A DNA stretch of 63,862 nt, filler included, from Craspedostauros australis (lineage: Eukaryota), in assembly GCA_030167865.1 (NCBI GenBank). It is 12 parts of 12 records of this genome, joined end to end, with 100 filler letters (N's around TTAATTAATTAA, not from the genome) between each part and the next. Parts side by side here need not be neighbours in the genome. Positions count along the whole stretch, not along the records: positions 16,683 to 21,652 come from JALAGF010001877.1; positions 21,753 to 26,722 come from JALAGF010001878.1; positions 26,823 to 31,361 come from JALAGF010001879.1; 9 more parts are not named here. One strand, 5' to 3'. Each line of letters begins with the position of its first letter. Position 1 is the first letter of the stretch. Shown here piece by piece: positions 12,501 through 35,800 of this stretch. The position numbers and the translations under genes are program-made. Under the pieces are notes generated by a model, which worked only from the letters and a program-made list of their open reading frames with translations, ran no database searches and was not told the origin of the DNA.

Positions 12501-15500
12501 GGAAGTCCAAGTCGCTGCATTACACGCCCCATACGTTCTCGCTGATCACCATCGTCGGTAACCGATTCACGGGCAAGTCGCAGAAGGACGCCGTCGAAGT
12601 TAATGAAAACAAATGGTACAGCGGCGAGGGCAATGACATCCAGTTCAAATCCATCGACTTCGAAGCTGCGACCGAAGGCGAGTATTGGCTCATCTTCCGC
12701 GGATTCCTTCTGCTGCACCGTGATGCCGCAGTTGGCCGCTTTGCGGCGCAGAGGCGTGCCGGTATCGGAGGCGGCATGGCCAGGACGCGCGACCCAAGCA
12801 CCACCAACGGCAACGACGAAGTCGAGAACATGCTGCACCGCAACGAATTCCAAGAGCCGGCCACCGTCGGTTGCTTGGAACGGATGGTGGTGAGATGGAG
12901 ATCGTTGGATACAACGTACATGGTCGGATCGATGAAGAAGGGGTCCAAGCCTCCGCCCTCGGACTACTTCCTGGGATTCTCCTCCCCCGGCACGCAGATC
13001 TGGAGCCGCCTGCGTCTTGCCGGGTTGGAAACGCAACGCATTTATGCTGTCAGCAACAACCGCGTGATGATCAAGCTGAGCTGTCCTGAGGATAGGCTGA
13101 TCGATGTTGCGGAAGTTCTGCGGGTGAAGCTGAAGACGCATGACGGACAGTACGCTCCCTTCCGTGAGGACACGGTTGACATCTTCAAGCCGCGGTACGA
13201 CGCGCTGGACTGTCCCTCCGAGTTCCTGGGCAAGCCAGCCTCGCTGTTGCGATCGAAGGACCGGCAGATGATCATCGACTTCATCGTTGGCTCACGCATC
13301 CGAGATTCCGGCGCAGAACTGGGGGCAACGACTGATGTGGGCAAGATGATCGAGGCTCGTGTGCCGCTGCATATACATTCCAAGCTGGAGCCGCTGTACC
13401 AGACCTGGGTGTTCTTCTGGTGCCGAAGTCACTGGACGGGCAGAGACGGACGCGGCCTCTCCGTCGAGCAGGACATGGATGATGGGATGGATGACACCGT
13501 GACGTTGCTGGACAAGAAATTCGACACTGTCAACGATGCACACTTGCACGACCAAGGCAACCAGCACGGCAACAACCAAGGCGCCAAGCAGGGCAGTCAG
13601 CGCATTCGGCAAGACAATCAGCAGCACTACCATCACAATCACCACCAGACAGGTCAGAACCAGAATCCAAACCATCACAGCGCATCAATTGAGAGACGTC
13701 CGCCAAACTTCTTCAAACGTCTCTTCGTCGGCGCGTTCTATCAGCCTCTGGACTCCATCGAGGATTACTTCGGCGAGCAGGTGTCATTCTACTTCGCGTG
13801 GTTGCAGCACGTCGCAGCACACCTCGTCATTCTCAGCGTGTTCGGATTCATCGTCATCACAATCCAAATCCTGTCCAACAACATGGACCATCCCATCCGG
13901 CCGATATTCTCCATCATCGTCATGCTTTGGACGTTCGTTGTGCTGGTGACCTGGCAGCAACGTTCCAACTTTCTCGCCTACAGGTGGGGAACGATCGATC
14001 ACAAGGTGCAGGAAACCACGAGGCCCGAATTCCACGGAACGTACGTGCAGGACGATGTGACGAAGGAGTGGGTGGTGAAGTACCCCAACTGGAAGCGCTG
14101 GATCAAGTACGCCATCAGCCTGCCCGTCAGCCTTTTGTTTGCCGCATTCGCCATGCTGCTCATCATGATGGTGCACGCCAACCGCGATCTGCAGCTTGCC
14201 AACTACATTGCGCAACTGAATTCGGCCAACTCCACCGAGCCGTACAAGGTGACCTTTTCGACGGATGCCATCCTGACGCCGTTGCGGGCGGAGAAGGTGG
14301 AGCTGACGAGAGACATGATGCTAGATGGCACTATATGGTTGCTGATGGGGGCGCTCCCAGTCGCCCTCGGTCTGTGCATCCCTATCCTCAACCTCATCCT
14401 CATGAACGTGTCCGTCATGCTCAACAACTTCGAGAACTACCGCACCGAGTCTGAATACAGAGCAGCGCTGATCATCAAGGTGTTTACCTTCCGATTCGTG
14501 AGTCAGTTCGGAACGGTGTACTACTACGCGTACCTGTCCATCGGCAGCGACGAGAGCATCCGGAACGGAATCGTGCGAATGGGAACGAGTCTTCTGATCT
14601 ACACCACGGTGTCTCATTGGTTCCAGATCCTTCTGCAGGTGTACTTCTTCATGTTGGTCCGTCAGATTCGGAGATTCCTCTACAATCGCATGCTCCGGAG
14701 GGCCCTCAGGCAGATCGAGTGCGCGGAAGATGCATCGGAGGATCTCGAGACCGAGGAGGCGAAGAAGCGACGTGAAATCGAGCTCATCAACAAGCGGATC
14801 CTGCTGGATCAGGCACAGGACGACATTTGGTTCGAGGTCATGAACCCTCCGCATACGAGCTTTCCCGAGTACATGACCGCCGTGGTCCAGTTCTCCTTCG
14901 TGGCATGCTTCAGCGTCGTGATGCCGCTGATCCCATTCTTCTGCCTGGTGAACTGCCTGCTCAGCATGCGGTTCGATGCCTACAAGATCTGCAAGGTGCG
15001 ACGCCGACCACTGGCGCAGCAAACTGGTGGCATGGGCGTCTGGGAGCACCTCCTGCACATCGTCGCCGTCATTGCAATCCTGACCAACTGCTGGTTGATG
15101 GGCTTTACCAACTCCAACTTTGCCTGGCTGGCCAAGCAGATTGGCCCTGCCGGGTTGTTTGGAGTTGTGGTGGCGTGGGAACACGTCATGCTCCTCATCA
15201 AGTACGTTATGCAGACGACCATCTCGGCTTTCCCGAAGTCGGTGCGGGACGACATGCGCCGTGAGCAGCACAGGGCAGAGCGTGAGCGCAACTATACCCT
15301 GATGGCGAGGAATCGCAAGCGCCGTCCGAAGATTCGCAAGACGGGATCGCAATTGTGGCTGCCAGGCGGCAGCGGAACCTTCGAGGAGGGTAGCTACGGT
15401 CAAAACAGCCATGGCAATGGTCATAGTGATGGTCGTGTGTATGCCAACGGCAGCGGCAGCGGCAATATGCACGTCAATGCTCGTGGCAACATTCACGTTA

Positions 15501-15757
15501 CCAACGCAGACAGGATCTATGACCACGATCGCACTTTGAATCGCAACATCCAGGGGCAGGGCCACAGTACTTCCGCTGCTGTTGCTGCTCCTGCTGCTCC
15601 TGTTGTTGTTGAAGAAAGTGGCAGCAACAACAGAAACAGCCACTCGGTTCATCGGAGCGGGTTGAACAACCAAGGAGGAGCATTCCCACGATCAGAGGGC
15701 CTGCTCCAAACGATCCATTCTTCCGAAGAAGATGCCAGCGGTCTCTACCACGCGTGA
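9575..15757 (+). CDS. Anoctamin/TMEM16-family membrane protein with long disordered N-terminus and split PH-like domain (2060 aa, intronless ORF)
   Basis: QPLDSIEDYFGEQVSFYFAWL, WQQRSNFLAYRWG, RPEFHG, LNNFENYRTESEY..LIIKVF, RFDAYK, RRP..QQTGGMGVW, WEHVMLLIK are anoctamin hallmarks; multiple hydrophobic segments in the C-terminal part. Confidence 0.93.
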   Translation: MMRLSRKKKHQHHGDGDGDGDGHNGDDGAADRGGFVGPHGRNAIPSTPNQRRNALPTNPSTTNLGPSRSPMFQHEANIDLGDESLVGFADAASGFGSMSNVNSHGYSESESEFEDSTAFGGRRSTQHRSSLRSSGRDAVHAAGRSSLHSDVSRTKDLAQGNPITPMATMEAVPLTPEGKEVPRHADLKPADLARNRHHHNHHHATHQAQRQVGHQAGHHDEEGLANSNGNGNGNGNGNGNSYKRGGNAADKGIAQFNNGGYAVDDIDDIDAADADHSQDSSVPSFIPSHYGVTRTPQTKRVGRMQVQSPADSSQFSDSANSNPTVTSSRSGTKSYMSYRSSTSLSILHGEVIGGPGAITPARHHAQRQQARANAYSMNTDESSALPLEGMEIGGRFSSASRTKQQQQQLQLQPQQHRHHEQYEHKHASSQISIQSGADHGIGHDDKTGGSTQGLSAVFQQGNFMRHIKNKSAYISRTTRQHLSQVFGSLGSTNARRLGNTYVPPPPSPGAGMVNDLKTLRARHQEKLGPWQNDPERNFERQQYYDFCIILTPQESYRYWSELLDFRVEHLGEDGDGDISKTMSLQNICSLETCSTRSSDDSEASYGKYIQSQHLQMQNETTALQSPMKSPDYATPNTGIHRRRGGGSDRKNRTPKSPIFMDLETPPPPHSSSRRVSTSTFTRNPKRLSMFEKAVVSPVDGDALNNSGLPINTPGENFRKSMGPRPSMSSARRRWGNRTIGEAANRLSPPVHSLTRGNFTKKKLPINSTPVAKEDPLCEMESATPIQNDENRNPNELRIDEIPNHVIPRGIAARTNGMLQFLSALKRGIVVRRHRPNKTAIYCKIFSTDDGDTIQHQLIDASEAMVGFKEQRIRYNRNIGNSSDPIAIRGITKEWACLDQPDSNDTSIHKFAVPDHVAAQRYRDKIKQNNGARRLAQVSIKAANSGIVRTSDVVAVHPAQHPDPRSRRNELGSATLRKSKSLHYTPHTFSLITIVGNRFTGKSQKDAVEVNENKWYSGEGNDIQFKSIDFEAATEGEYWLIFRGFLLLHRDAAVGRFAAQRRAGIGGGMARTRDPSTTNGNDEVENMLHRNEFQEPATVGCLERMVVRWRSLDTTYMVGSMKKGSKPPPSDYFLGFSSPGTQIWSRLRLAGLETQRIYAVSNNRVMIKLSCPEDRLIDVAEVLRVKLKTHDGQYAPFREDTVDIFKPRYDALDCPSEFLGKPASLLRSKDRQMIIDFIVGSRIRDSGAELGATTDVGKMIEARVPLHIHSKLEPLYQTWVFFWCRSHWTGRDGRGLSVEQDMDDGMDDTVTLLDKKFDTVNDAHLHDQGNQHGNNQGAKQGSQRIRQDNQQHYHHNHHQTGQNQNPNHHSASIERRPPNFFKRLFVGAFYQPLDSIEDYFGEQVSFYFAWLQHVAAHLVILSVFGFIVITIQILSNNMDHPIRPIFSIIVMLWTFVVLVTWQQRSNFLAYRWGTIDHKVQETTRPEFHGTYVQDDVTKEWVVKYPNWKRWIKYAISLPVSLLFAAFAMLLIMMVHANRDLQLANYIAQLNSANSTEPYKVTFSTDAILTPLRAEKVELTRDMMLDGTIWLLMGALPVALGLCIPILNLILMNVSVMLNNFENYRTESEYRAALIIKVFTFRFVSQFGTVYYYAYLSIGSDESIRNGIVRMGTSLLIYTTVSHWFQILLQVYFFMLVRQIRRFLYNRMLRRALRQIECAEDASEDLETEEAKKRREIELINKRILLDQAQDDIWFEVMNPPHTSFPEYMTAVVQFSFVACFSVVMPLIPFFCLVNCLLSMRFDAYKICKVRRRPLAQQTGGMGVWEHLLHIVAVIAILTNCWLMGFTNSNFAWLAKQIGPAGLFGVVVAWEHVMLLIKYVMQTTISAFPKSVRDDMRREQHRAERERNYTLMARNRKRRPKIRKTGSQLWLPGGSGTFEEGSYGQNSHGNGHSDGRVYANGSGSGNMHVNARGNIHVTNADRIYDHDRTLNRNIQGQGHSTSAAVAAPAAPVVVEESGSNNRNSHSVHRSGLNNQGGAFPRSEGLLQTIHSSEEDASGLYHA

Positions 15758-16582: not shown

Positions 16583-16682
16583 NNNNNNNNNNNNNNNNNN
16601 NNNNNNNNNNNNNNNNNNNNNNNNNNTTAATTAATTAANNNNNNNNNNNNNNNNNNNNNNNNNNNNNNNNNNNNNNNNNNNN
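16583..16682. other. Artificial contig linker N44-TTAATTAATTAA-N44 (also 21653-21752, 26723-26822, 31362-31461, 36427-36526, 45714-45813, 47937-48036, 49278-49377, 50534-50633, 52225-52324, 53642-53741; plain N gaps 18790-18867, 63711-63730)
   Basis: Identical 100-bp construct with stops in all six frames, repeated 11 times; ORFs and repeats end abruptly at each. Confidence 0.97.
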
Positions 16683-19600
16683 TCCGAAACCACAGGTAGA
16701 CCGGGAATGTAGGTGTCTTCCCCAACACACTCCTTTGATCCCACCAAGGCTTCCTTGTATGACTTGACCTTGGTGGTATCACCAGCATGGTGGTTGAGGA
16801 TGATATCCCGGAACATTCTGAATTTGGTCCCTTGCAATGGCTTTGTGAAGAAATCTCCGAGCATGTCATCAGTGGGACAGTACTCGACGGTGATGTCTCC
16901 TTTTTCAATTCGGTCTGTGGCAAAGAAAAACCGCATGCTGATGTGACGAGTTCGTTTGCTGCTTGAACCCCGACCATTTTGTTCCAGGAGCATTGCGCTC
17001 TGGTTGTCCTGATAGATGGTCGTGGGACCAAGGTCGACACCTTGCTCCTGTAGGAAATAGCGTGCCCATAACACCTGCGGCATGACGTCGTCGACTGCCA
17101 CAAGTTCGGCTTCTGTGGAGCTCCTGGTGTTCAGTTTTTGTTTGGATGATGTGGCGTATATCACACCTCCTCCTGCGGACAGACATGCTCCTGTGTGGCT
17201 GCGCATGTTGTCATGGACACCGAATGATCCGTCAACCCACCATCTGATGTCCTTGAGCGCCGACCCACCGAGCGCAAGTGTTAGGTTGCGTGTTCCGCGT
17301 AGGTATTTGACAACACGGGCGAGTTTCTTGTAGTCGTCAGTGTCAGGGGATTTGACCCTAGTACATAGAAAAGACACTGCGGTTTGGATGTCTGGTCTCG
17401 CTCGCTTGCAGAGGAATAGCAGTTTTGCGACGTTGTGATGAAACATGTCGGCAGTGTCACTGTCTAGCTTGGTCGGATTGTCCTCATTGATGTTGAATAA
17501 GTGATTCGCAGCTGGAGTTGCTGCTATGCCCGACATGTCCCCAGGCACTCCTTCAATGATGCCATCGATGTATTCGGCCATGTCGATGATGATTTTGTTT
17601 GGCGTAGAGTAGTCGAGTCGCATCCCCAAGTATTCGTGTACCTTGCCTCGAGTGACTGTTAGCGGTGTTCTCTGTCCATATGCTTTGTTCAACATACCGA
17701 TGACATCACTCACGACATGCTCATCCACATGTGATATTTTCAGATCGTCCACATGCCATACCACTGTGCACTGTTTACCGTTCACAACCTTGTTCGCGAT
17801 GCACCAGTCATATGGGTTAATAGTGAACCCGTCCTCCTCCAGCGTTGTGGTGAGGTGTTTCCACCAGCATAGAGCTGCCTTGAGTGTACCGTAGAGTGCC
17901 CTTGTGAGCTTGACGTATATAGCCGATTGTCCACGTTTCTTGTGGATGTACTCATCATACACGTCTGGGGCGATTTTCCCCAGGATTTCAGCCATTCTTC
18001 CCTCGATGAGAACGTGCACAACATCGTCATCGTCGAATTTTGCGTGCAGAAATGCGCCTGGCACATCAACGGTTGCGACATCACGATTTTCTTGTGCATC
18101 AATAACACAAGTGAACATGAGTCCCAACAGTGATACTGTGGGCGAGCTCGTCTCATCTTTTGTCATGTATAGACGCTGCTTGCGCCCATCAGCACATCCA
18201 CGACCCTTGATAATCCCACTCCTTTTCTCTTTCAAATACATGAGATATCGCAGTGCCTTCCTTCGCTCGTCATGAGTGAGCTGATGCCAGTGCTTGGGCT
18301 CGAAGCCCTCCATATCATGGACCTGTTGGAGTTCTCTGCTGATTGCTTCTTCGCCTCGCTCATGGAATTGTTTCAGTCCTTGTTTCCAGTTCATCTGCTC
18401 TGTAACAAAAGTGCATGCCGATGTCTCATTTTCCGGTATTCCGTTGTTCGGTGCACCCAACTGTATCATCGTGGCGTGTGCTCCATCCCGTCCTGTATGG
18501 TGTAGCTTGTAGTAGTCCACTCGTGGACCGCGTCTTGTACGCATGCGATTGTTGTCTGTGTTGGAGTGTTGTTCTTCTGTTGGAGTGTTGTCTCGGTTCC
18601 CGCGTTCATTTCCGACGATTGGGGTTGGGGTGATGAGTGTGTTGTTATCGCGTGAGTCGGCGGCGATATCGATATCGTCATCTTCTTCGTCGGCGATCAC
18701 ATCGCAATTATGATCGGTTGTTTCGCTGGAGACACTGTCATCTGTCTTGCTTCCACCATCGTCATAGTCGTCGCCGTCATGGTTGCTGCNNNNNNNNNNN
18801 NNNNNNNNNNNNNNNNNNNNNNNNNNNNNNNNNNNNNNNNNNNNNNNNNNNNNNNNNNNNNNNNNNCTGGTATCATCCATCTCGTCATCCAGTGATTCGT
18901 CGCTTGCACTTGATGCATTGTCTTCGTCTTCATTGTGGCCTGCATCGTTGCTGCCGGTGTCGGGGTATAGTTCGATACCATGACTGGTGGTAAAATGGAG
19001 GTTCTTCTCGGATTTGGCTGCCTTGGCCAGTGCATGTACGTGGTCTATCACTGATTGTGGCATGGGGATCTCTGTCCAGCTGCGGCGATGAATGCAGCGT
19101 CCGGTAGTCAGGCTGTAGAAGACGTAGCCACCTTGGATGTTGCCGGATGGTCGCAGAGCGATTGCTCCAACGGTGCGTGGTTGCATGGAGTTATCGTGCT
19201 GTTCATGTGTTTGCGCGTAGCTGCCGAATTCGATTCTGCAGTGCGCGTTGTAATCGAGCTTTCTCCCGACCACAATTTCTGCTGGGCTCATGCGCTTTGA
19301 TACGCCATCAGGATGTGGGAACATATTCATCCAGTAGACTGAATGATACACCATTTCAATGATGAGCGATGGTGGGTACGCCTTGAATGGTAGAGCATGG
19401 TATGTAGATCGAGTGCGCTCCTTGATTGTTCGAATATAGCGCTCGACTTCCGGCACGTGTTCATCACGAGAGGTCACGTTGATGCTCACACCAACCTCAG
19501 ACATGTCACCACGGAGCGAGCTGAACTGGTTGTCAGTCAGCATGATACCAACCCTGAACCCTCGTTGCTTGTACAGCTGGATGATGTTCCTGAACTGCTT

Positions 19601-21535
19601 CACGAGCGTTGCATTCGACTCGGAGTTGAGCTTGACGACGGTTCCGAACTTGAGGTGTTTGGATACGGACACCAGAAATGGAATACCGTTCACCTTCATG
19701 ATATCCGCAGAGAGCACGACGTCACGATATTGCTGCATGATACTGGCTGGCAAATGTGCGATCTTTGCTCGGACGGCCGGGGGTACCTGCCTTGTTGTCT
19801 TTCCTTTGAGTGATGGTACATCCGGACCGAAGATGAGCTCGGCAGTGCGAATGTCCTTGGTTGTGATGGGACAGTTCGGTATCATCCCATTCTTCACGTA
19901 CTTGATGTAGTTGCGCGTGGTTGGATGTCCAATGCGCTTCTGAATAGATCTAGCAAGTTGGGCCTGCGAGTAGTCGTAAGTGGAGAAGCTATTTTTGTTA
20001 TCTTCCACTGTAGTCACGAGAGCTACTTCGCTGGGGCTTGCCATGTTCAGGTAGTACAGTCCGCGTTGGGACTCGACGAAGGTCCGGGTTGATCCATCCG
20101 GCTTGTGTACCACAAAGCTGTTGGTACCACTGCTGTCATATGTGACGCGGAACATGGATTTCACGCGGCTGAGTGAGAGGATGTTGGCCACGCCGGATGG
20201 GTGGTACCACACTGCGCCATATCCAGGGAGTGTACCCTTCTTGTTGGTGGTGGTGGTGCCAGCGTTGCAATGGATGGTCAGGGCGGTGTCAACATCATGG
20301 ATGTCGCGGATGAGTTGTGCGTTGGAGAAGACGTCGACCGTGGATTGATTGTCCAGCAGAATCCAAGTGTTGGGAATAGGGCTGTGCTTGTTGTGATTGT
20401 GGTGGTTGGTGAGGAAAACGAACTCATCTTCATCATCCCCCACAGTCGTCGCATGGACGAGGACAGTTCCATTTGCATGGTATTTGGCATGACACTGGTC
20501 GGTTGTGTGGTTGCTGCGACCGCATCGCTCACACTTGGTGTCGTTTTCGTGTGTGTTCACGAATGCCATGCCTGAATCCTTTGGAGTGTTGTGACTTGGA
20601 AGATTCCTTGGATCCTTCGACCAGTGGTTCAGCATTGTGAACGCCTCCGCCATGGTCTTGGGGTATCGATCATCACCTTTGAGGTAGTCGTTCTGTAGTT
20701 CTTCGATGAGGGATCCGTACCGGTGGCGATCTGCGCCGAGGATGAAAGCAACGGCAAGGAAGCGCTGCTTGGCATCCTTCCTGATCTCCTTTCGCTCTTC
20801 CTCGCTTGGGTCTTTGAGGTTACGCTCCTTGAGGACATGAAGGGCTGCGCTGGTCACCTCTGTGACATTGGTCATGAGTGTGTCGTTCACATCGACAAGA
20901 TTGATGAAGGATTCGTAGTATTCTTGTGTGGTTTGTTTTCTCTTTTGTTGGAAGGTGAGAAGGTCCTTCATGATCATGTGTGCGGCGACCAAGTGGTGTT
21001 GGTGTGTTTGGAAATTGAAAACAACACTCTTTATCATCTTGATGAGGGTGATTGTGTCCATGCTGCTGTTGGCTGCAGAGTATTCTGTCATCTCTTGTAG
21101 GCGGCTTCGCATGATCTCTGAGCACTGGCCCCAGATCAGGGCGTACACCTTTTGGAGGTCCACCTCGGCGTTGGCAAGCCGGGTGGTGTAGAGGGCATAC
21201 TTGCGCTTCCACTTTTCCTTCTGAATCTCGGTGGCGTTGCTCGGGTAGTCGGCTGGCTCGGGGATGGACGGCGGCTGGAGGTTTTCAATGGCGAGTGCGA
21301 CGGCTGGTCCGTATTCCGATCCGACGTACACCTTGACTGCATCGAGTGTGCGAGTGAATTCATCGACCTGCTTGGATCGGTTCGCTACACAGTCGAAAAC
21401 GAATCCCTTCAGGCCAGAGCATGCTCCTTCGAACTTGGCTGGACGCACGAACGGTGGTCGATGTGGCTTGTTTGTTTTGTTGTTGCTGTCCGGCGCTGAC
21501 TTTCTCGGCACAGCCGGCTTACTCTCGGTGCTCAT
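16683..21535 (-). CDS. Copia gag-pol polyprotein (~1,660 aa when completed from copy 3); first ATG MSTESK at 21535
   Basis: Gag CCHC CERCGRSNHTTDQC; protease WILLDNQSTVDVF; integrase IGHPT, SADIM, TDNQF, EHVPEVERYIRTIKER; RT KALRYLMYLKEKRSG..KGRGCADG, DVPGAFL, ALYG, WHVDDL; RNase H WWVDGSFG, TEAELVA, QDNQSA, GDFFTKPL; no internal stops. Confidence 0.95.
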
Positions 21536-21550
21536 CTTTGCTGATAGAGC

Positions 21551-21568
21551 AAAAATCAATTGTAACTA
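21551..21568 (-). promoter_or_regulatory. Primer-binding-site position TAGTTACAATTGATTTTT, complementary to LTR-internal 29058-29075 (also 26621-26638 in copy 2)
   Basis: Immediately follows the 5' LTR end CAACA; does not begin with TGG; exact reverse complement of AAAAATCAATTGTAACTA in the LTR. Confidence 0.85.
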
Positions 21569-21752
21569 TGTTGTAACAACAGCGCTCTCGCCGGTCTCTA
21601 CCCGGCTTTGAGCCGAAGGACAGTTCCAGACGATGTTACTGTGTGATTGTATNNNNNNNNNNNNNNNNNNNNNNNNNNNNNNNNNNNNNNNNNNNNTTAA
21701 TTAATTAANNNNNNNNNNNNNNNNNNNNNNNNNNNNNNNNNNNNNNNNNNNN

Positions 21753-24700
21753 TCCGAAACCACAGGTAGACCGGGAATGTAGGTGTCTTCCCCAACACAC
21801 TCCTTTGATCCCACCAAGGCTTCCTTGTATGACTTGACCTTGGTGGTATCACCAGCATGGTGGTTGAGGATGATATCCCGGAACATTCTGAATTTGGTCC
21901 CTTGCAATGGCTTTGTGAAGAAATCTCCGAGCATGTCATCAGTGGGACAGTACTCGACGGTGATGTCTCCTTTTTCAATTCGGTCTGTGGCAAAGAAAAA
22001 CCGCATGCTGATGTGACGAGTTCGTTTGCTGCTTGAACCCCGACCATTTTGTTCCAGGAGCATTGCGCTCTGGTTGTCCTGATAGATGGTCGTGGGACCA
22101 AGGTCGACACCTTGCTCCTGTAGGAAATAGCGTGCCCATAACACCTGCGGCATGACGTCGTCGACTGCCACAAGTTCGGCTTCTGTGGAGCTCCTGGTGT
22201 TCAGTTTTTGTTTGGATGATGTGGCGTATATCACACCTCCTCCTGCGGACAGACATGCTCCTGTGTGGCTGCGCATGTTGTCATGGACACCGAATGATCC
22301 GTCAACCCACCATCTGATGTCCTTGAGCGCCGACCCACCGAGCGCAAGTGTTAGGTTGCGTGTTCCGCGTAGGTATTTGACAACACGGGCGAGTTTCTTG
22401 TAGTCGTCAGTGTCAGGGGATTTGACCCTAGTACATAGAAAAGACACTGCGGTTTGGATGTCTGGTCTCGCTCGCTTGCAGAGGAATAGCAGTTTTGCGA
22501 CGTTGTGATGAAACATGTCGGCAGTGTCACTGTCTAGCTTGGTCGGATTGTCCTCATTGATGTTGAATAAGTGATTCGCAGCTGGAGTTGCTGCTATGCC
22601 CGACATGTCCCCAGGCACTCCTTCAATGATGCCATCGATGTATTCGGCCATGTCGATGATGATTTTGTTTGGCGTAGAGTAGTCGAGTCGCATCCCCAAG
22701 TATTCGTGTACCTTGCCTCGAGTGACTGTTAGCGGTGTTCTCTGTCCATATGCTTTGTTCAACATACCGATGACATCACTCACGACATGCTCATCCACAT
22801 GTGATATTTTCAGATCGTCCACATGCCATACCACTGTGCACTGTTTACCGTTCACAACCTTGTTCGCGATGCACCAGTCATATGGGTTAATAGTGAACCC
22901 GTCCTCCTCCAGCGTTGTGGTGAGGTGTTTCCACCAGCATAGAGCTGCCTTGAGTGTACCGTAGAGTGCCCTTGTGAGCTTGACGTATATAGCCGATTGT
23001 CCACGTTTCTTGTGGATGTACTCATCATACACGTCTGGGGCGATTTTCCCCAGGATTTCAGCCATTCTTCCCTCGATGAGAACGTGCACAACATCGTCAT
23101 CGTCGAATTTTGCGTGCAGAAATGCGCCTGGCACATCAACGGTTGCGACATCACGATTTTCTTGTGCATCAATAACACAAGTGAACATGAGTCCCAACAG
23201 TGATACTGTGGGCGAGCTCGTCTCATCTTTTGTCATGTATAGACGCTGCTTGCGCCCATCAGCACATCCACGACCCTTGATAATCCCACTCCTTTTCTCT
23301 TTCAAATACATGAGATATCGCAGTGCCTTCCTTCGCTCGTCATGAGTGAGCTGATGCCAGTGCTTGGGCTCGAAGCCCTCCATATCATGGACCTGTTGGA
23401 GTTCTCTGCTGATTGCTTCTTCGCCTCGCTCATGGAATTGTTTCAGTCCTTGTTTCCAGTTCATCTGCTCTGTAACAAAAGTGCATGCCGATGTCTCATT
23501 TTCCGGTATTCCGTTGTTCGGTGCACCCAACTGTATCATCGTGGCGTGTGCTCCATCCCGTCCTGTATGGTGTAGCTTGTAGTAGTCCACTCGTGGACCG
23601 CGTCTTGTACGCATGCGATTGTTGTCTGTGTTGGAGTGTTGTTCTTCTGTTGGAGTGTTGTCTCGGTTCCCGCGTTCATTTCCGACGATTGGGGTTGGGG
23701 TGATGAGTGTGTTGTTATCGCGTGAGTCGGCGGCGATATCGATATCGTCATCTTCTTCGTCGGCGATCACATCGCAATTATGATCGGTTGTTTCGCTGGA
23801 GACACTGTCATCTGTCTTGCTTCCACCATCGTCATAGTCGTCGCCGTCATGGTTGCTGCAGTCGTCATGGTTGTTGTCATCATCATCATCATCGTCATCA
23901 CCATCATCGCGATCATCTTCATCATTGCCATCATCACTGGTATCATCCATCTCGTCATCCAGTGATTCGTCGCTTGCACTTGATGCATTGTCTTCGTCTT
24001 CATTGTGGCCTGCATCGTTGNTGCCGGTGTCGGGGTATAGTTCGATACCATGACTGGTGGTAAAATGGAGGTTCTTCTCGGATTTGGNTGCCTTGGCCAG
24101 TGCATGTACGTGGTCTATCACTGATTGTGGCATGGGGATCTCTGTCCAGCTGCGGCGATGAATGCAGCGTCCGGTAGTCAGGCTGTAGAAGACGTAGCCA
24201 CCTTGGATGTTGCCGGATGGTCGCAGAGCGATTGCTCCAACGGTGCGTGGTTGCATGGAGTTATCGTGCTGTTCATGTGTTTGCGCGTAGCTGCCGAATT
24301 CGATTCTGCAGTGCGCGTTGTAATCGAGCTTTCTCCCGACCACAATTTCTGCTGGGCTCATGCGCTTTGATACGCCATCAGGATGTGGGAACATATTCAT
24401 CCAGTAGACTGAATGATACACCATTTCAATGATGAGCGATGGTGGGTACGCCTTGAATGGTAGAGCATGGTATGTAGATCGAGTGCGCTCCTTGATTGTT
24501 CGAATATAGCGCTCGACTTCCGGCACGTGTTCATCACGAGAGGTCACGTTGATGCTCACACCAACCTCAGACATGTCACCACGGAGCGAGCTGAACTGGT
24601 TGTCAGTCAGCATGATACCAACCCTGAACCCTCGTTGCTTGTACAGCTGGATGATGTTCCTGAACTGCTTCACGAGCGTTGCATTCGACTCGGAGTTGAG

Positions 24701-26605
24701 CTTGACGACGGTTCCGAACTTGAGGTGTTTGGATACGGACACCAGAAATGGAATACCGTTCACCTTCATGATATCCGCAGAGAGCACGACGTCACGATAT
24801 TGCTGCATGATACTGGCTGGCAAATGTGCGATCTTTGCTCGGACGGCCGGGGGTACCTGCCTTGTTGTCTTTCCTTTGAGTGATGGTACATCCGGACCGA
24901 AGATGAGCTCGGCAGTGCGAATGTCCTTGGTTGTGATGGGACAGTTCGGTATCATCCCATTCTTCACGTACTTGATGTAGTTGCGCGTGGTTGGATGTCC
25001 AATGCGCTTCTGAATAGATCTAGCAAGTTGGGCCTGCGAGTAGTCGTAAGTGGAGAAGCTATTTTTGTTATCTTCCACTGTAGTCACGAGAGCTACTTCG
25101 CTGGGGCTTGCCATGTTCAGGTAGTACAGTCCGCGTTGGGACTCGACGAAGGTCCGGGTTGATCCATCCGGCTTGTGTACCACAAAGCTGTTGGTACCAC
25201 TGCTGTCATATGTGACGCGGAACATGGATTTCACGCGGCTGAGTGAGAGGATGTTGGCCACGCCGGATGGGTGGTACCACACTGCGCCATATCCAGGGAG
25301 TGTACCCTTCTTGTTGGTGGTGGTGGTGCCAGCGTTGCAATGGATGGTCAGGGCGGTGTCAACATCATGGATGTCGCGGATGAGTTGTGCGTTGGAGAAG
25401 ACGTCGACCGTGGATTGATTGTCCAGCAGAATCCAAGTGTTGGGAATAGGGCTGTGCTTGTTGTGATTGTGGTGGTTGGTGAGGAAAACGAACTCATCTT
25501 CATCATCCCCCACAGTCGTCGCATGGACGAGGACAGTTCCATTTGCATGGTATTTGGCATGACACTGGTCGGTTGTGTGGTTGCTGCGACCGCATCGCTC
25601 ACACTTGGTGTCGTTTTCGTGTGTGTTCACGAATGCCATGCCTGAATCCTTTGGAGTGTTGTGACTTGGAAGATTCCTTGGATCCTTCGACCAGTGGTTC
25701 AGCATTGTGAACGCCTCCGCCATGGTCTTGGGGTATCGATCATCACCTTTGAGGTAGTCGTTCTGTAGTTCTTCGATGAGGGATCCGTACCGGTGGCGAT
25801 CTGCGCCGAGGATGAAAGCAACGGCAAGGAAGCGCTGCTTGGCATCCTTCCTGATCTCCTTTCGCTCTTCCTCGCTTGGGTCTTTGAGGTTACGCTCCTT
25901 GAGGACATGAAGGGCTGCGCTGGTCACCTCTGTGACATTGGTCATGAGTGTGTCGTTCACATCGACAAGATTGATGAAGGATTCGTAGTATTCTTGTGTG
26001 GTTTGTTTTCTCTTTTGTTGGAAGGTGAGAAGGTCCTTCATGATCATGTGTGCGGCGACCAAGTGGTGTTGGTGTGTTTGGAAATTGAAAACAACACTCT
26101 TTATCATCTTGATGAGGGTGATTGTGTCCATGCTGCTGTTGGCTGCAGAGTATTCTGTCATCTCTTGTAGGCGGCTTCGCATGATCTCTGAGCACTGGCC
26201 CCAGATCAGGGCGTACACCTTTTGGAGGTCCACCTCGGCGTTGGCAAGCCGGGTGGTGTAGAGGGCATACTTGCGCTTCCACTTTTCCTTCTGAATCTCG
26301 GTGGCGTTGCTCGGGTAGTCGGCTGGCTCGGGGATGGACGGCGGCTGGAGGTTTTCAATGGCGAGTGCGACGGCTGGTCCGTATTCCGATCCGACGTACA
26401 CCTTGACTGCATCGAGTGTGCGAGTGAATTCATCGACCTGCTTGGATCGGTTCGCTACACAGTCGAAAACGAATCCCTTCAGGCCAGAGCATGCTCCTTC
26501 GAACTTGGCTGGACGCACGAACGGTGGTCGATGTGGCTTGTTTGTTTTGTTGTTGCTGTCCGGCGCTGACTTTCTCGGCACAGCCGGCTTACTCTCGGTG
26601 CTCAT
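21753..26605 (-). CDS. Copia gag-pol polyprotein, copy 2
   Basis: Translation matches copy 1; includes the Asp-rich IN-RT linker. Confidence 0.95.
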
Positions 26606-26722
26606 CTTTGCTGATAGAGCAAAAATCAATTGTAACTATGTTGTAACAACAGCGCTCTCGCCGGTCTCTACCCGGCTTTGAGCCGAAGGACAGTTCCAGA
26701 CGATGTTACTGTGTGATTGTAT
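21753..26722 (-). mobile_element. Same CoDi copia element, copy 2 (redundant contig; partial LTRs 26639-26722 and 21753-21797)
   Basis: Apparently identical to copy 1 at a 5070-bp offset with the same ends; fills the Asp-rich segment gapped in copy 1; single Ns at 24021 and 24088. Confidence 0.96.
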
Positions 26723-26822
26723 NNNNNNNNNNNNNNNNNNNNNNNNNNNNNNNNNNNNNNNNNNNNTTAATTAATTAANNNNNNNNNNNNNNNNNNNNNN
26801 NNNNNNNNNNNNNNNNNNNNNN

Positions 26823-29059
26823 GCAGCAACCATGACGGCGACGACTATGACGATGGTGGAAGCAAGACAGATGACAGTGTCTCCAGCGAAACAACCGATC
26901 ATAATTGCGATGTGATCGCCGACGAAGAAGATGACGATATCGATATCGCCGCCGACTCACGCGATAACAACACACTCATCACCCCAACCCCAATCGTCGG
27001 AAATGAACGCGGGAACCGAGACAACACTCCAACAGAAGAACAACACTCCAACACAGACAACAATCGCATGCGTACAAGACGCGGTCCACGAGTGGACTAC
27101 TACAAGCTACACCATACAGGACGGGATGGAGCACACGCCACGATGATACAGTTGGGTGCACCGAACAACGGAATACCGGAAAATGAGACATCGGCATGCA
27201 CTTTTGTTACAGAGCAGATGAACTGGAAACAAGGACTGAAACAATTCCATGAGCGAGGCGAAGAAGCAATCAGCAGAGAACTCCAACAGGTCCATGATAT
27301 GGAGGGCTTCGAGCCCAAGCACTGGCATCAGCTCACTCATGACGAGCGAAGGAAGGCACTGCGATATCTCATGTATTTGAAAGAGAAAAGGAGTGGGATT
27401 ATCAAGGGTCGTGGATGTGCTGATGGGCGCAAGCAGCGTCTATACATGACAAAAGATGAGACGAGCTCGCCCACAGTATCACTGTTGGGACTCATGTTCA
27501 CTTGTGTTATTGATGCACAAGAAAATCGTGATGTCGCAACCGTTGATGTGCCAGGCGCATTTCTGCACGCAAAATTCGACGATGACGATGTTGTGCACGT
27601 TCTCATCGAGGGAAGAATGGCTGAAATCCTGGGGAAAATCGCCCCAGACGTGTATGATGAGTACATCCACAAGAAACGTGGACAATCGGCTATATACGTC
27701 AAGCTCACAAGGGCACTCTACGGTACACTCAAGGCAGCTCTATGCTGGTGGAAACACCTCACCACAACGCTGGAGGAGGACGGGTTCACTATTAACCCAT
27801 ATGACTGGTGCATCGCGAACAAGGTTGTGAACGGTAAACAGTGCACAGTGGTATGGCATGTGGACGATCTGAAAATATCACATGTGGATGAGCATGTCGT
27901 GAGTGATGTCATCGGTATGTTGAACAAAGCATATGGACAGAGAACACCGCTAACAGTCACTCGAGGCAAGGTACACGAATACTTGGGGATGCGACTCGAC
28001 TACTCTACGCCAAACAAAATCATCATCGACATGGCCGAATACATCGATGGCATCATTGAAGGAGTGCCTGGGGACATGTCGGGCATAGCAGCAACTCCAG
28101 CTGCGAATCACTTATTCAACATCAATGAGGACAATCCGACCAAGCTAGACAGTGACACTGCCGACATGTTTCATCACAACGTCGCAAAACTGCTATTCCT
28201 CTGCAAGCGAGCGAGACCAGACATCCAAACCGCAGTGTCTTTTCTATGTACTAGGGTCAAATCCCCTGACACTGACGACTACAAGAAACTCGCCCGTGTT
28301 GTCAAATACCTACGCGGAACACGCAACCTAACACTTGCGCTCGGTGGGTCGGCGCTCAAGGACATCAGATGGTGGGTTGACGGATCATTCGGTGTCCATG
28401 ACAACATGCGCAGCCACACAGGAGCATGTCTGTCCGCAGGAGGAGGTGTGATATACGCCACATCATCCAAACAAAAACTGAACACCAGGAGCTCCACAGA
28501 AGCCGAACTTGTGGCAGTCGACGACGTCATGCCGCAGGTGTTATGGGCACGCTATTTCCTACAGGAGCAAGGTGTCGACCTTGGTCCCACGACCATCTAT
28601 CAGGACAACCAGAGCGCAATGCTCCTGGAACAAAATGGTCGGGGTTCAAGCAGCAAACGAACTCGTCACATCAGCATGCGGTTTTTCTTTGCCACAGACC
28701 GAATTGAAAAAGGAGACATCACCGTCGAGTACTGTCCCACTGATGACATGCTCGGAGATTTCTTCACAAAGCCATTGCAAGGGACCAAATTCAGAATGTT
28801 CCGGGATATCATCCTCAACCACCATGCTGGTGATACCACCAAGGTCAAGTCATACAAGGAAGCCTTGGTGGGATCAAAGGAGTGTGTTGGGGAAGACACC
28901 TACATTCCCGGTCTACCTGTGGTTTCGGAACATCCCGACGAAGACCAGACCAGGCAAGGAAAACCAACCGAGACCACACAATCGCTGCGCCAAGTCAGCG
29001 ATAAGATCACAGCAACAGCAAACAACAACAAAGAGAGAGAGAGCAAACAAACACCATAA
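26823..29059 (+). CDS. Copia pol C-terminal part (RT, RNase H); ORF extends 175 nt into the 3' LTR, TAA at 29057-29059
   Basis: WHVDDL, RPDIQTAVSFL, WWVDGSFG, DFFTKPL; the 715-aa ORF ends ...KERESKQTP*. Confidence 0.93.
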
Positions 29060-29174
29060 AAATCAATTGTAACTATCTGATTTACCACCCATACAATCAC
29101 ACAGTAACATCGTCTGGAACTGTCCTTCGGCTCAAAGCCGGGTAGAGACCGGCGAGAGCGCTGTTGTTACAACA
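28885..29174 (+). repeat. Complete 290-bp LTR (TGTTG...CAACA), preceded by a weak polypurine tract GGATCAAAGGAGTG
   Basis: 5-bp terminal inverted repeat; first 45 bp match 16683-16727 (rc) and last 84 bp match 21569-21652 (rc). Confidence 0.92.
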
Positions 29175-29253
29175 CTCTCAACGGAATCAACCATCATGGA
29201 GACAGCGCAGAACGAACCCACGATCACTGCGACTCCATGATTCTCCACCAGGA

Positions 29254-31361
29254 ATGATCGCTCCTGTCAACGGCGATTCCACATCAGCCACCTTGGAACC
29301 ACCACGTGATGACAACAACAACAACAACAACAACAACAAGGACACTGTTGATGGTGACAAGTCAATCAAGTCCTCCGCATCCACAGAACAAACCACATCG
29401 ACCATCGATGTCAACATGTTCGAGCTCCTCGCTGGCCGTGCCGCAACTTGCCTTGCGGAAAGTGACCTTCAACTTGAGGCCACGGGCAAGGACAACACAA
29501 GAATGCCCAACTCATCAACAACATGGATCGATGAAAAGAACCTATTCGCATTCCAAAGGGTCATGGAGAAGATCAAGCTCAAGCTTCCAGATGAACAGAA
29601 GACACCCATGGATCGTGATGACGCATTCTCGTGGATCCGATGGATGAAGTCATCACCCACACCCATGATCGTGGACGTGTCGAAGACCTTCCAGTCCATC
29701 ATCAACGCCACCGTCATCACCGATCAGTCCATGGAACGCATCGATCAAACACGAGAGCAGTTCCTGGCACGATTGCGATGTCGGTTGGTGCTGTTGCCAT
29801 CGGGTGCATCGCTGAAGGGACCGCTGCTGGAACCATCATCGTCGTTGATCTGCGGCAAGCTGCTGTATGGTGGCATCACGCGGTACCGTCTCATCGGATC
29901 TCACAATTCCAACCGTTCACCTCGCAAGGCTGGTGAACGCACAGATATCATGGTGTCATCCAAGGACAACCTGCCAACATGGATCCAGTACGGCGGTCCT
30001 GAAAGGATGTACGAGGCGGTCGACATGGGACCATGCGCCGCATTGGAGGTCCTGCTGATGGCACCTGGACAAGGAATCGTTCCTGAAAAGAGTCCACAGA
30101 TGCAGGAAATGATGATTGAGAACTTGGCATGGAGACCAGAACGGATGTTTGGTCAGTACATGAGTGAGAATGGTGATGGTGGTAGCAACGGGGATGGAGG
30201 GAGCTCGATCAACGATCAGCTGGCAATCCCCATCTCGCTATCTGGCAGTGAACGCAATGACGCATTCCAATCCGACTTCGAATCCTCCGTCGGCGGTCTG
30301 CAGAAAGAGATCAGCTCGATCGTCCGACGTGTGCTCGATGGTCGTGTCATCCGTCCAGCCGATGAGGATGACAACACTGCCATCACGGACAAGGACAGCA
30401 TGAAGGACAAGATCAAGGATGGGGCCAAGGACGAGGTCACGACGCAGCTCAGCCGGACTGCCATGGAAGCCGAAGAGCTGTTGGCGTTGGGCTTGACACC
30501 CGTCCGCGGGCTGTTGCTGTATGGACCTCCTGGATGTGGCAAGACAGCACTCGCAAGAGAGATCGCGCGTGCTCTGCGTGCTCGCAAGCCCAAGATCGCA
30601 TCAGCACCAGAGCTGCTGGATCGATGGGTCGGTGGATCGGAGAAGCTGGTGCGATCTCTGTTTGCTGATGCTGAGGCAGAGCTGGCTGCATGCAACGGCG
30701 ATGTCACGAAGAGTGCTTTGCATGTGATCGTGATCGATGAGGTCGATGCCGTGTTCCGGCGTCGCAGTGCTGGAGAAGACTCCGGTGAGGCCACACGTGC
30801 CAGCGTCGTCAATCAGATCCTGGCGAAGATGGATGGTGTCAACTCGATTGACAACGTGCTGCTGATCGGCATGACCAATCGTCGTGAGCTTCTGGATGAG
30901 GCGTTGCTGCGTCCGGGACGGCTGGAGGTCCAGATCGAGATCCCGCTTCCTGACCGGGAAGGCCGTCGTGAGATCCTGAAGATCCACTTTGATGCGTTGC
31001 GGAAGCGCGGTCGTTTGAGCAAGCCTCTTTGCTCTGCAATCGATGGTATGCCCAGCGATGGCATGTCCATGGATGGTTTCTGGGGTAGTGGAAGTGTAGG
31101 TGTAGGTGTAGGTGCAAGTGGAGATGTAGGTACAGCTGGAGATGGCAGCAACAGCCAGACTCAATCAGTATCGCCGCCAGCACCATCGCCTTCGGTGTCT
31201 CCGGGTCGCAAAAGAGCAGCAGTGCGTCATTTTGTGGGGCGGGTACTGACGGGTGCATCTTCGGCGGTGCGTCCAACCTATGACCTGGCCGCCAGCTATG
31301 CCACAGGAGGTTTTTCGGGTGCCGATATCGCAGGTCTTGTGCGTTGCGCTGGATCCATCGC
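29254..31361 (+). CDS. NSF/Sec18-like AAA+ ATPase, 3' end lost in gap; frame open back to the LTR junction at 29175
   Basis: VGGLQKEISSIVRRVL, GLLLYGPPGCGKT (Walker A), APELLDRWVGGSEKLVRSLF, LHVIVIDEVDAV (Walker B), VVNQILAKMDG, IGMTNRRELLDEALLRPGRLEV, FSGADIAGLVR. Confidence 0.88.
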
Positions 31362-32873: not shown

Positions 32874-35800
32874 CTACCTGGCCCTCTTGCTCCGTCTTAG
32901 GGTGGTTGATGCAGGGTCGTCGCGTGCGCGTTTGGTTCTTCTTGGTGCCAGGCAGAGCACAGCATGCGCGCCATGTTTTGCGGTTTTACTACGGCGCATA
33001 CTCATTGCTTCCATCTGATTCTTCAGGATGAAGGAATCATCCACCACGAAAGGAACGTATGGAAAACTTTTTCTGGAGTTCCAAGCAACTGCGCTTCGCG
33101 TACCTGCAGCAGTGTAGATCCGGTCTTCGCCAAAGAGAGGGTGCAGTCCGGGGTTCGCCACTGCGGAGGCATTTTTCTCGTAAATGGCCATTTTTGGGCT
33201 TGTATCCTCGGAGTAATCTTTGGCTTGGATACAGATTGTTCGCAAACTGTAGATCTTCTTACCTGTGGTGTCCGTCTTCTCCGTAAGGAAGGTGACGTAG
33301 GCATCTGCGAACTCACTGCTACCTTCTGCAACGTGGATGAGTGGCAGGTTGAAGATAAGTTCCACGACGTCTGTGGTTGTGCTGTGAGATGCGTTGGCGG
33401 GAGCGGGAGCGGCAACGGCAACGGCGGCCGGTTTCGCGTCTCCGTCGAGTGCTTTGTGAGATGTATTGGTGGAGTTGTTGATTCCCGCCGCGGCAATGGG
33501 ATGGATGGCTTGGGGCACAGTGGGGGCTTTCTGCTTGTGGTCTTGCTGGTCGTGGCATTGTTGTTCGGCCTCCCAGAGCACACGGAGTTGGTGGAGTAAG
33601 TCACGATCGACGAAAATTGGATGACAGGACTTCAACCAGTCTGTGATATCTTCTGCTTTGCCGCCCTTCAGCGGAACGCGACGTATGCATCTGCCTTCAG
33701 ACATGAACATTGCATCCATGTTGCGGAATATGGCACCCAAGGCTTTTGCGGTAGCAGCGTCGACGTCGTTCGTGCGTTTTACAGCAGCAGCCTTGATGGC
33801 TTCCATGAATTGTGAACCAACATCAGCATCAACAGCAGCTTTGGTGTCGTTCACGCGTTGTGCATCAACAGCAGCCGCGATGCTTTTCTCGAGTTGTGCA
33901 GCAACATCACCGGTGATGGCTTCCGTGAGTCGTGCATCAACAGTAGCGGCGATGGCTTGCTTGAGTTGCGCATCAACATCAGCGGCGGTGGCTTCCGTGA
34001 GTCGTGCATCAACAGTAGCGGCGATGCTTTTCTCGAGTTGTGCAGCAACATCACCGGTGATGGCTTCCGTGAGTCGTGCATCAACATCAGCGGCGATGGC
34101 TTGCTTGAGTTGCGCATCAACATCAGCGGCGGTGGCTTCCGTGAGTTGCGCACGAGCAGCGGCGATGGCGATGGCTTCCGCGAGTTGTGCATCAACAGCA
34201 TCGGCGATGCTTTCCTTGAGTTCTGCACGAGCAGCGGCGGTGGCTTCCTTGAATTGTGCAGCAACATCACCGGTGATGGCTTCCGTGAGTTGTACATCAA
34301 CAGCAGCGGCGATGGCTTCCTTGAGTTGCGCATCAACATCAGCGGCGGTGGCTTCGTTGAGTTGTGCAGCAACAGCACCGGTGATGGCCTCCGTGAGTTG
34401 TGCATCAACAGCAGCGGTGATGGCTTCCTTGAATTGTGCAGCAACATCAGCGGTGATGGCTTCCGTGAGTTGTGCATCAACAGCAGCGTCGATGGCTTTC
34501 TGGAGTTGTGCACGAGCAGCGTCGATGGTTCCGTTGAGTTGAATATCAGCGGCGGTGGTGCCTTCCTGGAGTTGTGTAAGAGTAGAAGCCATGATGCGCT
34601 CCTTGTCCGCGTCGCTCTTGACGGAAGTCATCATTGACTTGTGGAAGTACACCCGAGGAATCTTGAGGTCTCTTGGAAGTAGTGCCAGGTGGGTACGCTT
34701 GAGAGTCCAAAAGTCAGAACCGGCGCGTTCGTTCACGATTTGCTCTCCGTCGATCGTTTTGCATGTGTAGCGGGTTGGCTGGTCGGCATCCGGGTATGGG
34801 TTGATTTTCATCCCGACCTTGCCCAGAGCAGCAAAGATGTCTGCTTCCTGCTGCTGAATCGTGTCAGAATTGGAACCATTGGCGGGAGCAGCAAGGACGC
34901 GCCCATCATCATCTTTCTTCACGACGGAGGACGCAGCGATGGCGGCCCCGGCCAGCAGCGCAGTGAGGGTTTCAAAGCTGGCCGAGGTTGTTCCGAGAAA
35001 CGATTTCTCAGCCGCAGTTGCTTCACCGCCTTGGATGAGCCAAAGGCAAAGGAGCTGCATGGCATCGCTGAGCGCGAACGGACTTGCCTGCGGCTTGCTC
35101 TTATCGTCACCCGTGAGTGGCCTTGCGGTGACTAAGCCATAATCGACGACCAACCGACGCATGATGGAACCGCCCAGGTCACCCTTGAAGCGTTGGAAGG
35201 TGATCCCGTAATCCATGTTGTTCAGTTGTTTATCGGAGAGCTTTTCACTGAAATCTTTATCCTGTTGGAAAAGAAGAACTGCCAAAGCCTGGGATGCTGT
35301 GAGCCGCGCAAGGTACGGATTGTTCACCAGAGTACTCATGCCATTGCTTTTCATGAAGACTTTGAAGGTTTTGGAAAGGATGGCATTCTGCTCGTATTCA
35401 TTCTCACTTGACTTCTTTCCCTGGTCTCGGTTGATGTTTTCTTGCCTTTTTGACGCCCGCATGTAGATTGAGATCATCCGCGCGTTGGAATCAACGATGG
35501 CCTTGAGAAGAGGGGAATGCTCAAGCTCTTTGTACTCCGGTATGATGGTATTCTTTTCGTCTTTCACGTATTCGCTGCGAAGAATGTGGTAGACGTCTGC
35601 GGCATTCACCTTTGCAGAAGTATCGAGGTGAGTGAAGTTCTTGTGGTTTGATCCCACCCGTGTTTGGTCGGCACCGGTGCCTGCCACAGAGAATAGGACT
35701 TTGATGTCAATGTGGTTGAGAACACAGGGGAGTGTGTCTGCATTTGAGGAGCCTTGTGATGCTCCCACTGCAGAGGGACCGGCTTGGTTCGTGGCCTTTT

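Follow-up and report, generated by a model that had tools for sequence, protein, structure and literature searches.

How does a Ty1/copia retrotransposon prime reverse transcription when the sequence adjoining its long terminal repeat (LTR) does not start with TGG? The question is raised by an element in a 63,862-nt stretch of DNA from the diatom Craspedostauros australis (GenBank assembly GCA_030167865.1), which we refer to as the window. The element lies between positions 21551 and 29174, and the original prediction proposed that it dispenses with a tRNA and uses the 5' end of its own transcript as primer, as Tf1 of Schizosaccharomyces pombe does. We compared the element with relatives in metagenomes and put the probability of Tf1-like self-priming by the element's own RNA 5' end at roughly 85%, with the start of transcription and the RNase H cut deduced from sequence. 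Every part of the interpretation that could be tested computationally held, and the interpretation is thus supported.

Complementarity between the primer-binding site and the LTR

The primer-binding site (PBS) of the element is the 18-mer TAGTTACAATTGATTTTT, which directly follows the LTR and is found on the minus strand at 21551-21568 and at 26621-26638, in two near-identical contigs. Its reverse complement is located on the plus strand at 29058-29075, inside the complete 3' LTR. All three sites are where the original prediction had placed them, and all adjoin the same LTR end (...GAGAGCGCTGTTGTTACAACA); allowing up to three mismatches, the 18-mer has three matches, versus 0.01 expected by chance. 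With the last base of the LTR included, the complementarity comprises a perfect 19 nt between the PBS (the 3' arm) and the segment AAAAATCAATTGTAACTAT at 29058-29076 (+), which is the 5' arm and the proposed self-primer. The arms are 97 nt apart. In 20 dinucleotide shuffles of the window junction the longest complement was 9 nt. As predicted, the PBS does not start with TGG, and it is complementary to a segment inside the LTR in the polarity that is right for priming minus-strand strong-stop DNA. The 15 nt that separate the PBS from the gag ATG at 26605 do not contain a TGG either.

Both copies of the 5' LTR end 84 nt into the LTR (21569-21652, and 26639-26722 at the contig end, both on the minus strand), and these 84 nt are 100% identical to 29091-29174 in the 3' LTR. 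The primer segment of the 5' LTR therefore has to be taken from the 3' LTR, as the original prediction had noted. Its description of an assembly gap is correct in so far as the arm lies beyond the assembled 5' LTR, but the gap itself is a 44N-TTAATTAATTAA-44N linker between separate contigs.

Scanning metagenome contigs with a 34-sequence alignment identified 79 loci with related elements, many of them assembled with one collapsed LTR. The junction region, comprising the end of pol, the LTR and gag, was readable in 26 cases (16 contiguous, 10 merged via the terminal overlap of contig ends). In 25 of these 26 junctions the longest inverted repeat is a perfect one of 14-17 nt, located in the same place and with 52-118 nt between the arms; in the 26th (L057), a decayed copy, these arms are present but differ at two positions. 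Across 540 dinucleotide shuffles the longest repeat was 13 nt, so that 14 nt was never reached.

The pairing was then counted in a register anchored on the LTR end; a MAFFT alignment of 22 regions, which had gaps inside the 5' arm, was dropped. Among 20 distinct arm pairs, the window included, 279 of 280 cells are Watson-Crick pairs and one is G-U. Sliding the partner by 1-3 nt leaves 80-117 of the 280 cells paired. The distinct PBS 14-mers differ from each other at a mean of 7.5 positions, and the pairing ends sharply after 14 nt, with 6 of the 20 pairs matched at position 15. The original prediction named a lack of complementarity in related families as a refutation, and the outcome is the opposite: 28 different sequences with complete compensation.

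The genome_contigs collection (contigs of bacterial metagenome-assembled genomes, MAGs) served as an out-of-sample set and yielded six loci. The two that hold the region (L081 and L083) both show the pattern, and L081 brings a new arm sequence. These retrotransposon contigs (L080-L085) are filed under bacterial MAGs (Gloeobacterales, Spirochaetia, Rhizobacter) and are probably binning contaminants. No relatives were found in the viral_contigs collection. Of the 85 loci, 39 have a perfect repeat of 13-17 nt, with 28 distinct 13-mers, and these 39 are all assessable loci but the decayed L057. Among the metagenome loci with a match to the gag N-terminus, the pattern is present in 31 of 33; the exceptions are L057 and L030, which begins at the LTR end, so that the arm region is missing. 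L013 was considered as an exception and rejected as such, since its contig opens with the PBS and carries the arm in the 3' LTR. Matches in L068 and L085, a second hit in L047 and a hairpin with a 5-nt loop in L011 lack the CA and CAACA contexts of the arms (see below) and were discarded as spurious.

The leader between PBS and gag ATG varies in length. It measures 15 nt in the window, and about 360-800 nt in L013 and in a family group that carries the arm CTCTTTTTACGAAA (L028, L037, L040 and L042). In L035, a close variant of this group, the arm differs at three positions, all of which are compensated in the PBS.

A TGG start is absent from all 20 distinct PBS sequences, in which the GC content averages 12%. 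Judged by these two features, the clade has no PBS complementary to a tRNA 3' end, and in this respect resembles Tf1-type elements. ARAGORN detected no tRNA gene in the window, and a scripted scan of the window and the 79 metagenome loci found none either. Since the 28 PBS sequences are varied and AT-rich, and each of them matches its own LTR, neither a whole host tRNA nor half of one can account for them.

The arm duplex also dominates the predicted RNA structures. When the RNAs of eight relatives are folded by minimum free energy between the first base of the 5' arm and the last base of the PBS, the arm duplex closes every structure (z -2.9 to -4.8), and the same holds for the window RNA, calculated on the joined sequence (-43.2 kcal/mol, z -4.6). 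Given 12 of the 23 distinct regions, picked for similar loop length, RNAalifold returned unprompted the 14-bp duplex and two hairpins, with compensatory changes in 25 of 26 pairs. Paired cells make up 90.4%, versus 64.1% in shuffles and 33-49% in slid registers, and none of 500 shuffles reached the observed value on any of five measures.

Both hairpins lie inside the loop and co-vary, and they may correspond to the U5-IR stem-loop of Tf1. The first is small and directly follows the primer, with the form UGGUUU...AAACC. In the minimum-free-energy fold of the window its equivalent is TGATT...AATCA at 29078-29099 (+), in which 29078-29082 pair with 29095-29099; in the relatives the co-variation is between G-C (9 sequences) and A-U (3 sequences). 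The primer helix contains one G-U pair, at its edge, and both hairpins contain several. This near-absence of G-U from the primer helix would fit a PBS that is copied from the primer, and not mere selection on folding. No Rfam family matched in 26000-29400 of the window or in three of the loci.

LTR limits, arm borders and identity of the element

The complete 3' LTR spans 28885-29174 (+), measures 290 bp and has the terminal inverted repeat TGTTG...CAACA. These limits are set by contigs of run X1: in a diverged copy the match begins exactly at 28885 after an unrelated flank, and an identical copy departs at 29175 into a different flank. The diverged copy has 17 differences in 206 nt, none of which falls in 29055-29090. 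The flanks agree with the limits given originally, which put the first base of the arm at position 174 of the LTR and leave 98 nt between the arm and the end of the LTR. A shorter LTR starting from TGTAAC (29068), with half of the arm outside, was ruled out by the X1 contigs and by the conserved start AGGAGTG-TGTTG.

All 26 junction relatives keep both the start motif AGGAGTG-TGTT(G/A), whose heptamer lies just outside the LTR, and the end motif (Y)CAACA. In the window the heptamer is a polypurine-type tract at 28878-28884 (+), inside the conserved sequence coding for the C-terminus of pol, and its position suggests a role as plus-strand primer. True 3' flanks in the window, L010 and L015 confirm that the LTR ends at the 3' arm. 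A real 5' flank in L031 confirms the LTR start, with the 5' arm located 81 nt inside the LTR. The pol frame extends 172 nt into the LTR, where it stops at a TAA (29057-29059) near the presumed transcription start. U3 is therefore largely coding, and the plus-strand primer tract and the LTR start lie in conserved codons. In 13 of 25 relatives tabulated (L008, L010, L014, L020 and L037 among them) the pol stop is at most 25 nt away from the arm.

The borders of the arms are conserved as well. The LTR end (Y)CAACA, or the base just inside it, is invariably where the 3' arm begins. Directly before the 5' arm, 27 of 28 families have CA and 23 of 28 have TCA. An initiator-like motif of diatoms has been published as TCAH+1W, with CAY+1A for FCP genes (PMC4686930). 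The conserved (T)CA fits this initiator, which would place +1 at the first arm base, and the abrupt loss of complementarity after (T)CA is expected if the RNA begins there. Under either motif, +1 would fall one base before the arm in the window and in L031. In the window the candidate initiator is CCAT, just 5' of the arm at 29054-29057 (+), with a putative start at 29057 or 29058. The distance between arm and PBS could be measured in 24 families, and in 21 of them it is 92-118 nt. We also sought contigs ending in poly(A) to place the end of R, and none of the contigs did.

The protein-coding sequence identifies the element as a member of the Ty1/copia superfamily (Pseudoviridae), in agreement with the original prediction; the clade to which it belongs is diatom-associated. 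When the overlapping contigs are joined, a gag-pol frame of ~1,660 codons runs from the ATG at 26605 to the TAA at 29057-29059; this frame depends on a presumed contig join, and two single Ns in it appear as X residues. Pfam RVT_2 matches residues 1103-1337 (E 6e-15, above the curated cut-off), and is also found in all nine relatives scanned with Pfam. A zf-CCHC_5 knuckle is located at residues 342-367. Pfam and PDB profile searches detected no integrase by sequence. An AlphaFold model of residues 520-840, calculated from 22 aligned sequences (predicted local distance difference test score 82.7), resembles the integrases of Rous sarcoma virus (RSV), human immunodeficiency virus (HIV), maedi-visna virus (MVV) and prototype foamy virus (PFV), with a Foldseek probability of 1.00 and E-values of 4e-9 and weaker. 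The order is therefore gag, integrase and reverse transcriptase (RT), with the integrase fold before RVT_2, which makes the element Ty1/copia; a gypsy element would have RT before integrase and a different RT family. TG...CA ends of the LTRs, of which a single complete one is assembled, and the zinc knuckle in gag are in keeping with this assignment.

More than 2,000 homologous polyproteins are present in public data. The sole named homologue that was looked up, a protein from the diatom Cyclotella cryptica, is 60% identical over RT-RNase H. With ~5.4 kb for the element and 290 bp for the LTR, the sizes fall within the published ranges for CoDi elements (copia of diatoms; PMC2806351). Between the zinc knuckle and the integrase, residues 399-407 (about 25409-25435, -) contain an invariant block of the clade, WxxLDxxST, which reads LLDNQST here. 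A protease would be expected at this place, but the block lacks the D-S/T-G that is typical of one, and Pfam gave no match to a protease family.

Proposed self-priming and its alternatives

We hypothesize that the element primes its reverse transcription in the same way as Tf1. The transcript would start at the base of the 5' LTR that corresponds to 29058, or at the base preceding it. Its first 18-19 nt (14-15 in most relatives) would fold back over a structured R-U5 loop of ~97 nt, and pair with the sequence directly after the LTR. Cleavage 3' of the paired segment by the element's RNase H would then free a 3'-OH, from which synthesis would proceed through U5 and R and yield minus-strand strong-stop DNA, as it does in Tf1. 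Because the base that follows the LTR is paired to the 3' end of the arm, a cut at this position would leave a 3'-OH facing U5. Plus-strand strong-stop DNA would copy the primer, and the PBS would thereby be rewritten from it, which would keep the arms perfectly complementary. The bases directly after U5 must pair with any minus-strand primer, and a primer derived from the element's own RNA would thus explain why the PBS is specific to each family.

Several points weigh against self-priming. The step from mere pairing to priming is one that we infer. The assembly does not include the arm of the 5' LTR, whose presence is deduced from the 3' LTR together with the 84 identical nucleotides that the LTRs share. 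Among the relatives and the window, LTR limits are directly bounded only in the window, L010, L015 and L031. The arm in the window follows CCAT, and not the TCA of most relatives. The sequence ATAAAAAT (29055-29062) and the AT-rich arms of the relatives could be TATA-like elements, in which case the start would be ~30 nt downstream and the arm would lie outside the RNA 5' end. Finally, a fragment of a host tRNA may match the 18-mer of the window.

The duplex of arm and PBS might instead be a conserved RNA structure with another job, for example in packaging, dimerisation or control of translation, or as a stem of the U5-leader type, while a different molecule acts as primer. Covariation proves that the pairing is kept and does not reveal its function, and two other hairpins in the same region co-vary too. 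Stems and long-range pairings are known around the PBS of retroviruses and of Ty1, which counts in favour of such a role. We nevertheless consider it unlikely, because the duplex starts at the LTR end, the exact site required of any minus-strand primer, and because in the window only the 15 nt without TGG are left before the gag ATG. The 28 PBS variants, with their low GC content, cannot all match host primers. Moreover, the primer helix is perfect and, its edge aside, free of G-U, unlike the neighbouring hairpins, which look as if they are maintained by selection.

It is very unlikely that transcription starts downstream of the arm. The arm would then be U3 sequence, present only near the 3' end of the RNA. 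It could mediate 5'-3' cyclisation by long-range pairing with the PBS, or act as primer, supplied by the 3' copy or by another RNA molecule. The AT-rich arms could be TATA-like and the window has no canonical TCA, both of which would be compatible with a downstream start. Against it, the complementarity stops at the base after (T)CA as if the RNA ended there, and (T)CA agrees with the diatom initiator if +1 is the base that opens the arm. The spacing of 92-118 nt in most families, together with hairpins that are closed by the duplex, points to a local fold. A primer that remains attached to a whole genome would also be expected to make the later strand transfers awkward.

The remaining explanation is that the complementarity arose by chance, through misassembly or as a side effect of the terminal inverted repeat of the LTR. 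It might draw on the arms lying on different contigs of a fragmented assembly and on the palindrome CAATTG within the window arm, but it is already refuted by the shuffles (at most 9 nt, versus 19 observed), by the recurrence of the design with other sequences in 39 independent loci, and by a terminal repeat (TGTTG/CAACA) that is unrelated to the arms.

If self-priming is correct, its consequences would extend beyond the window. We lean, with some reservation, towards the view that a whole and widespread clade of diatom-associated copia elements has abandoned priming by tRNA. An initiator at the U3/R border would define the 14 nt at the 5' end of the RNA that act as primer, the PBS would be rewritten from them in each cycle, and every family would have a private pair of arms (28 variants). 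Such a system may have had a separate origin, or may be an ancient retention in copia branch 1, apart from Tf1/sushi and from the TAR lineage of plants.

Known priming systems and the surrounding contigs

Self-priming has been demonstrated for Tf1/Tf2 of S. pombe, which belong to the Tf1/sushi group of the Ty3/gypsy chromoviruses. As in these elements, there is no tRNA PBS in the diatom clade. The sequence at the PBS site is perfectly complementary to a segment at the expected RNA start, the loop is roughly 100 nt long and contains extra structure, and the polarity would allow an RNase H cut to make the primer. In Tf1 it is the 11 bases at the RNA 5' end that anneal to the PBS, and the RNase H cut falls between bases 11 and 12 (PMC7175516), whereas the putative primer has 14-15 nt in the relatives and 18-19 nt in the window. 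The diatom clade differs further in belonging to the copia superfamily, with an RVT_2 RT and the integrase upstream of it, and in a pol frame that runs through U3 to the presumed start. Transcription start and cleavage, which are demonstrated in Tf1, are presumed in the diatom clade. On this comparison, the element would work like Tf1, outside the Tf1/sushi group.

Within the copia superfamily, self-priming has been predicted for the plant lineage TAR, which includes Houba and Osr-1 (PMC6317226). The original prediction stated that copia elements normally use tRNA; that is too general a statement in view of TAR. Neumann et al. assigned self-priming where at least 10 bp of the 5' LTR are complementary to a region that starts 0-5 bp after the LTR (same article), and the arms of the diatom clade have this property. 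The superfamily and the kind of inference are thus the same as for TAR, while the host group is a different one and the copia branch probably differs too; the comparison with TAR draws on its published description. Self-priming as such is therefore already predicted in copia, and what is new here is the diatom-type clade.

CoDi-like elements are grouped with Ty and GalEa in copia 'branch 1' (PMC5445492). According to the same article, fungal GalEa elements have no PBS, and a 'Conserved Hairpin Site' starts from the last A of the 5' LTR; the authors report that no LTR segment complementary to the hairpin was found. GalEa elements are branch-1 relatives that, like the diatom clade, lack a tRNA PBS. 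In GalEa both arms are 3' of the LTR and form a local hairpin, whereas in the diatom clade one arm is located in the LTR, ~100 nt upstream. Copia elements primed by half-tRNAs (Osser, Bryco and Bianca) also have a non-canonical PBS without TGG, as described in PMC6317226. In these lineages the PBS is conserved and matches one tRNA, in contrast to the 28 AT-rich sequences found here, each of which matches its own LTR. The main text of Maumus et al. 2009 (PMC2806351) contains no discussion of a primer-binding site, and its single 'PBS' is a buffer. A literature search that covered full texts in part found no report of the priming mode of diatom elements.

Demonstrated only in Tf1-type gypsy elements and predicted in few lineages, self-priming would gain a third, deep lineage with the diatom clade. 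A clean signature throughout the clade bears on the choice between multiple origins and an ancestral self-priming in LTR elements, an idea raised in PMC3601003, and the clade also bears on how primer length is set. It explains why annotation tools that seek tRNA complements would fail to find the PBS of these abundant diatom elements. The succession CA, 14 nt, ~100 nt, CAACA and reverse complement provides a search rule for LTR ends and presumed transcription starts. If self-priming is true, the elements of the clade are independent of host tRNAs. Diatom copia elements have been reported to respond to stress by activation and to shape diatom genomes (PMC2806351), and for this reason their replication mechanism is of interest beyond transposon specialists.

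The 12 contigs of the window are joined by linkers at 16583-16682, 21653-21752, 26723-26822 and eight other sites, and the 12-mer in the linkers gives a stop codon in all six frames. The apparent gaps are therefore contig joins, and adjacent pieces are not necessarily neighbours in the genome. Between contigs 16683-21652 and 21753-26722 the identity is 100% over a stretch of 2107 nt and 99.93% over another of 2786 nt. The same 4970-nt contig thus appears twice in near-identical form, side by side, once with a 77-N gap (18790-18866) and once with two single Ns, which looks like assembly redundancy and not like two insertions. Both copies carry the element on the minus strand, beginning with the terminal 84 nt of the 5' LTR, passing through gag-pol and ending 45 nt inside the 3' LTR. 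The gag-pol frame occupies 16683-21535 (-) in the first copy, which contains the 77-N gap. In the second it occupies 21753-26605 (-), where it encodes the CCHC knuckle, integrase, RVT_2 RT and RNase H and is open to the contig end. Contig 26823-31361 opens with the exact reverse complement of 21753-23859 (at 26823-28929), continues with the rest of the 3' LTR and then enters unique flank; the 3' part of pol is encoded at 26823-29059 (+), where an open reading frame spans 26912-29059.

In this flank, 80 nt 3' of the 3' LTR and in the same orientation, an AAA-ATPase gene is located at 29254-31361 (+; Pfam AAA, E 4e-32), parts of which are covered by X1 contigs. The 3' LTR could act on the expression of this gene. 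Other contigs carry ordinary host genes at 171-6392 (-), 9575-15757 (+), 56244-58448 (+) and 59909-61546 (+), namely a ubiquitin hydrolase with a DUSP domain, an anoctamin, a phosphoglucose isomerase and a DUF6824 protein. At 33826-34576, self-BLAST revealed diverged tandem repeats with a register of about 36 nt and 73-89% identity. They lie inside an open reading frame of 1079 codons (32874-36113, -) without a clear Pfam family.

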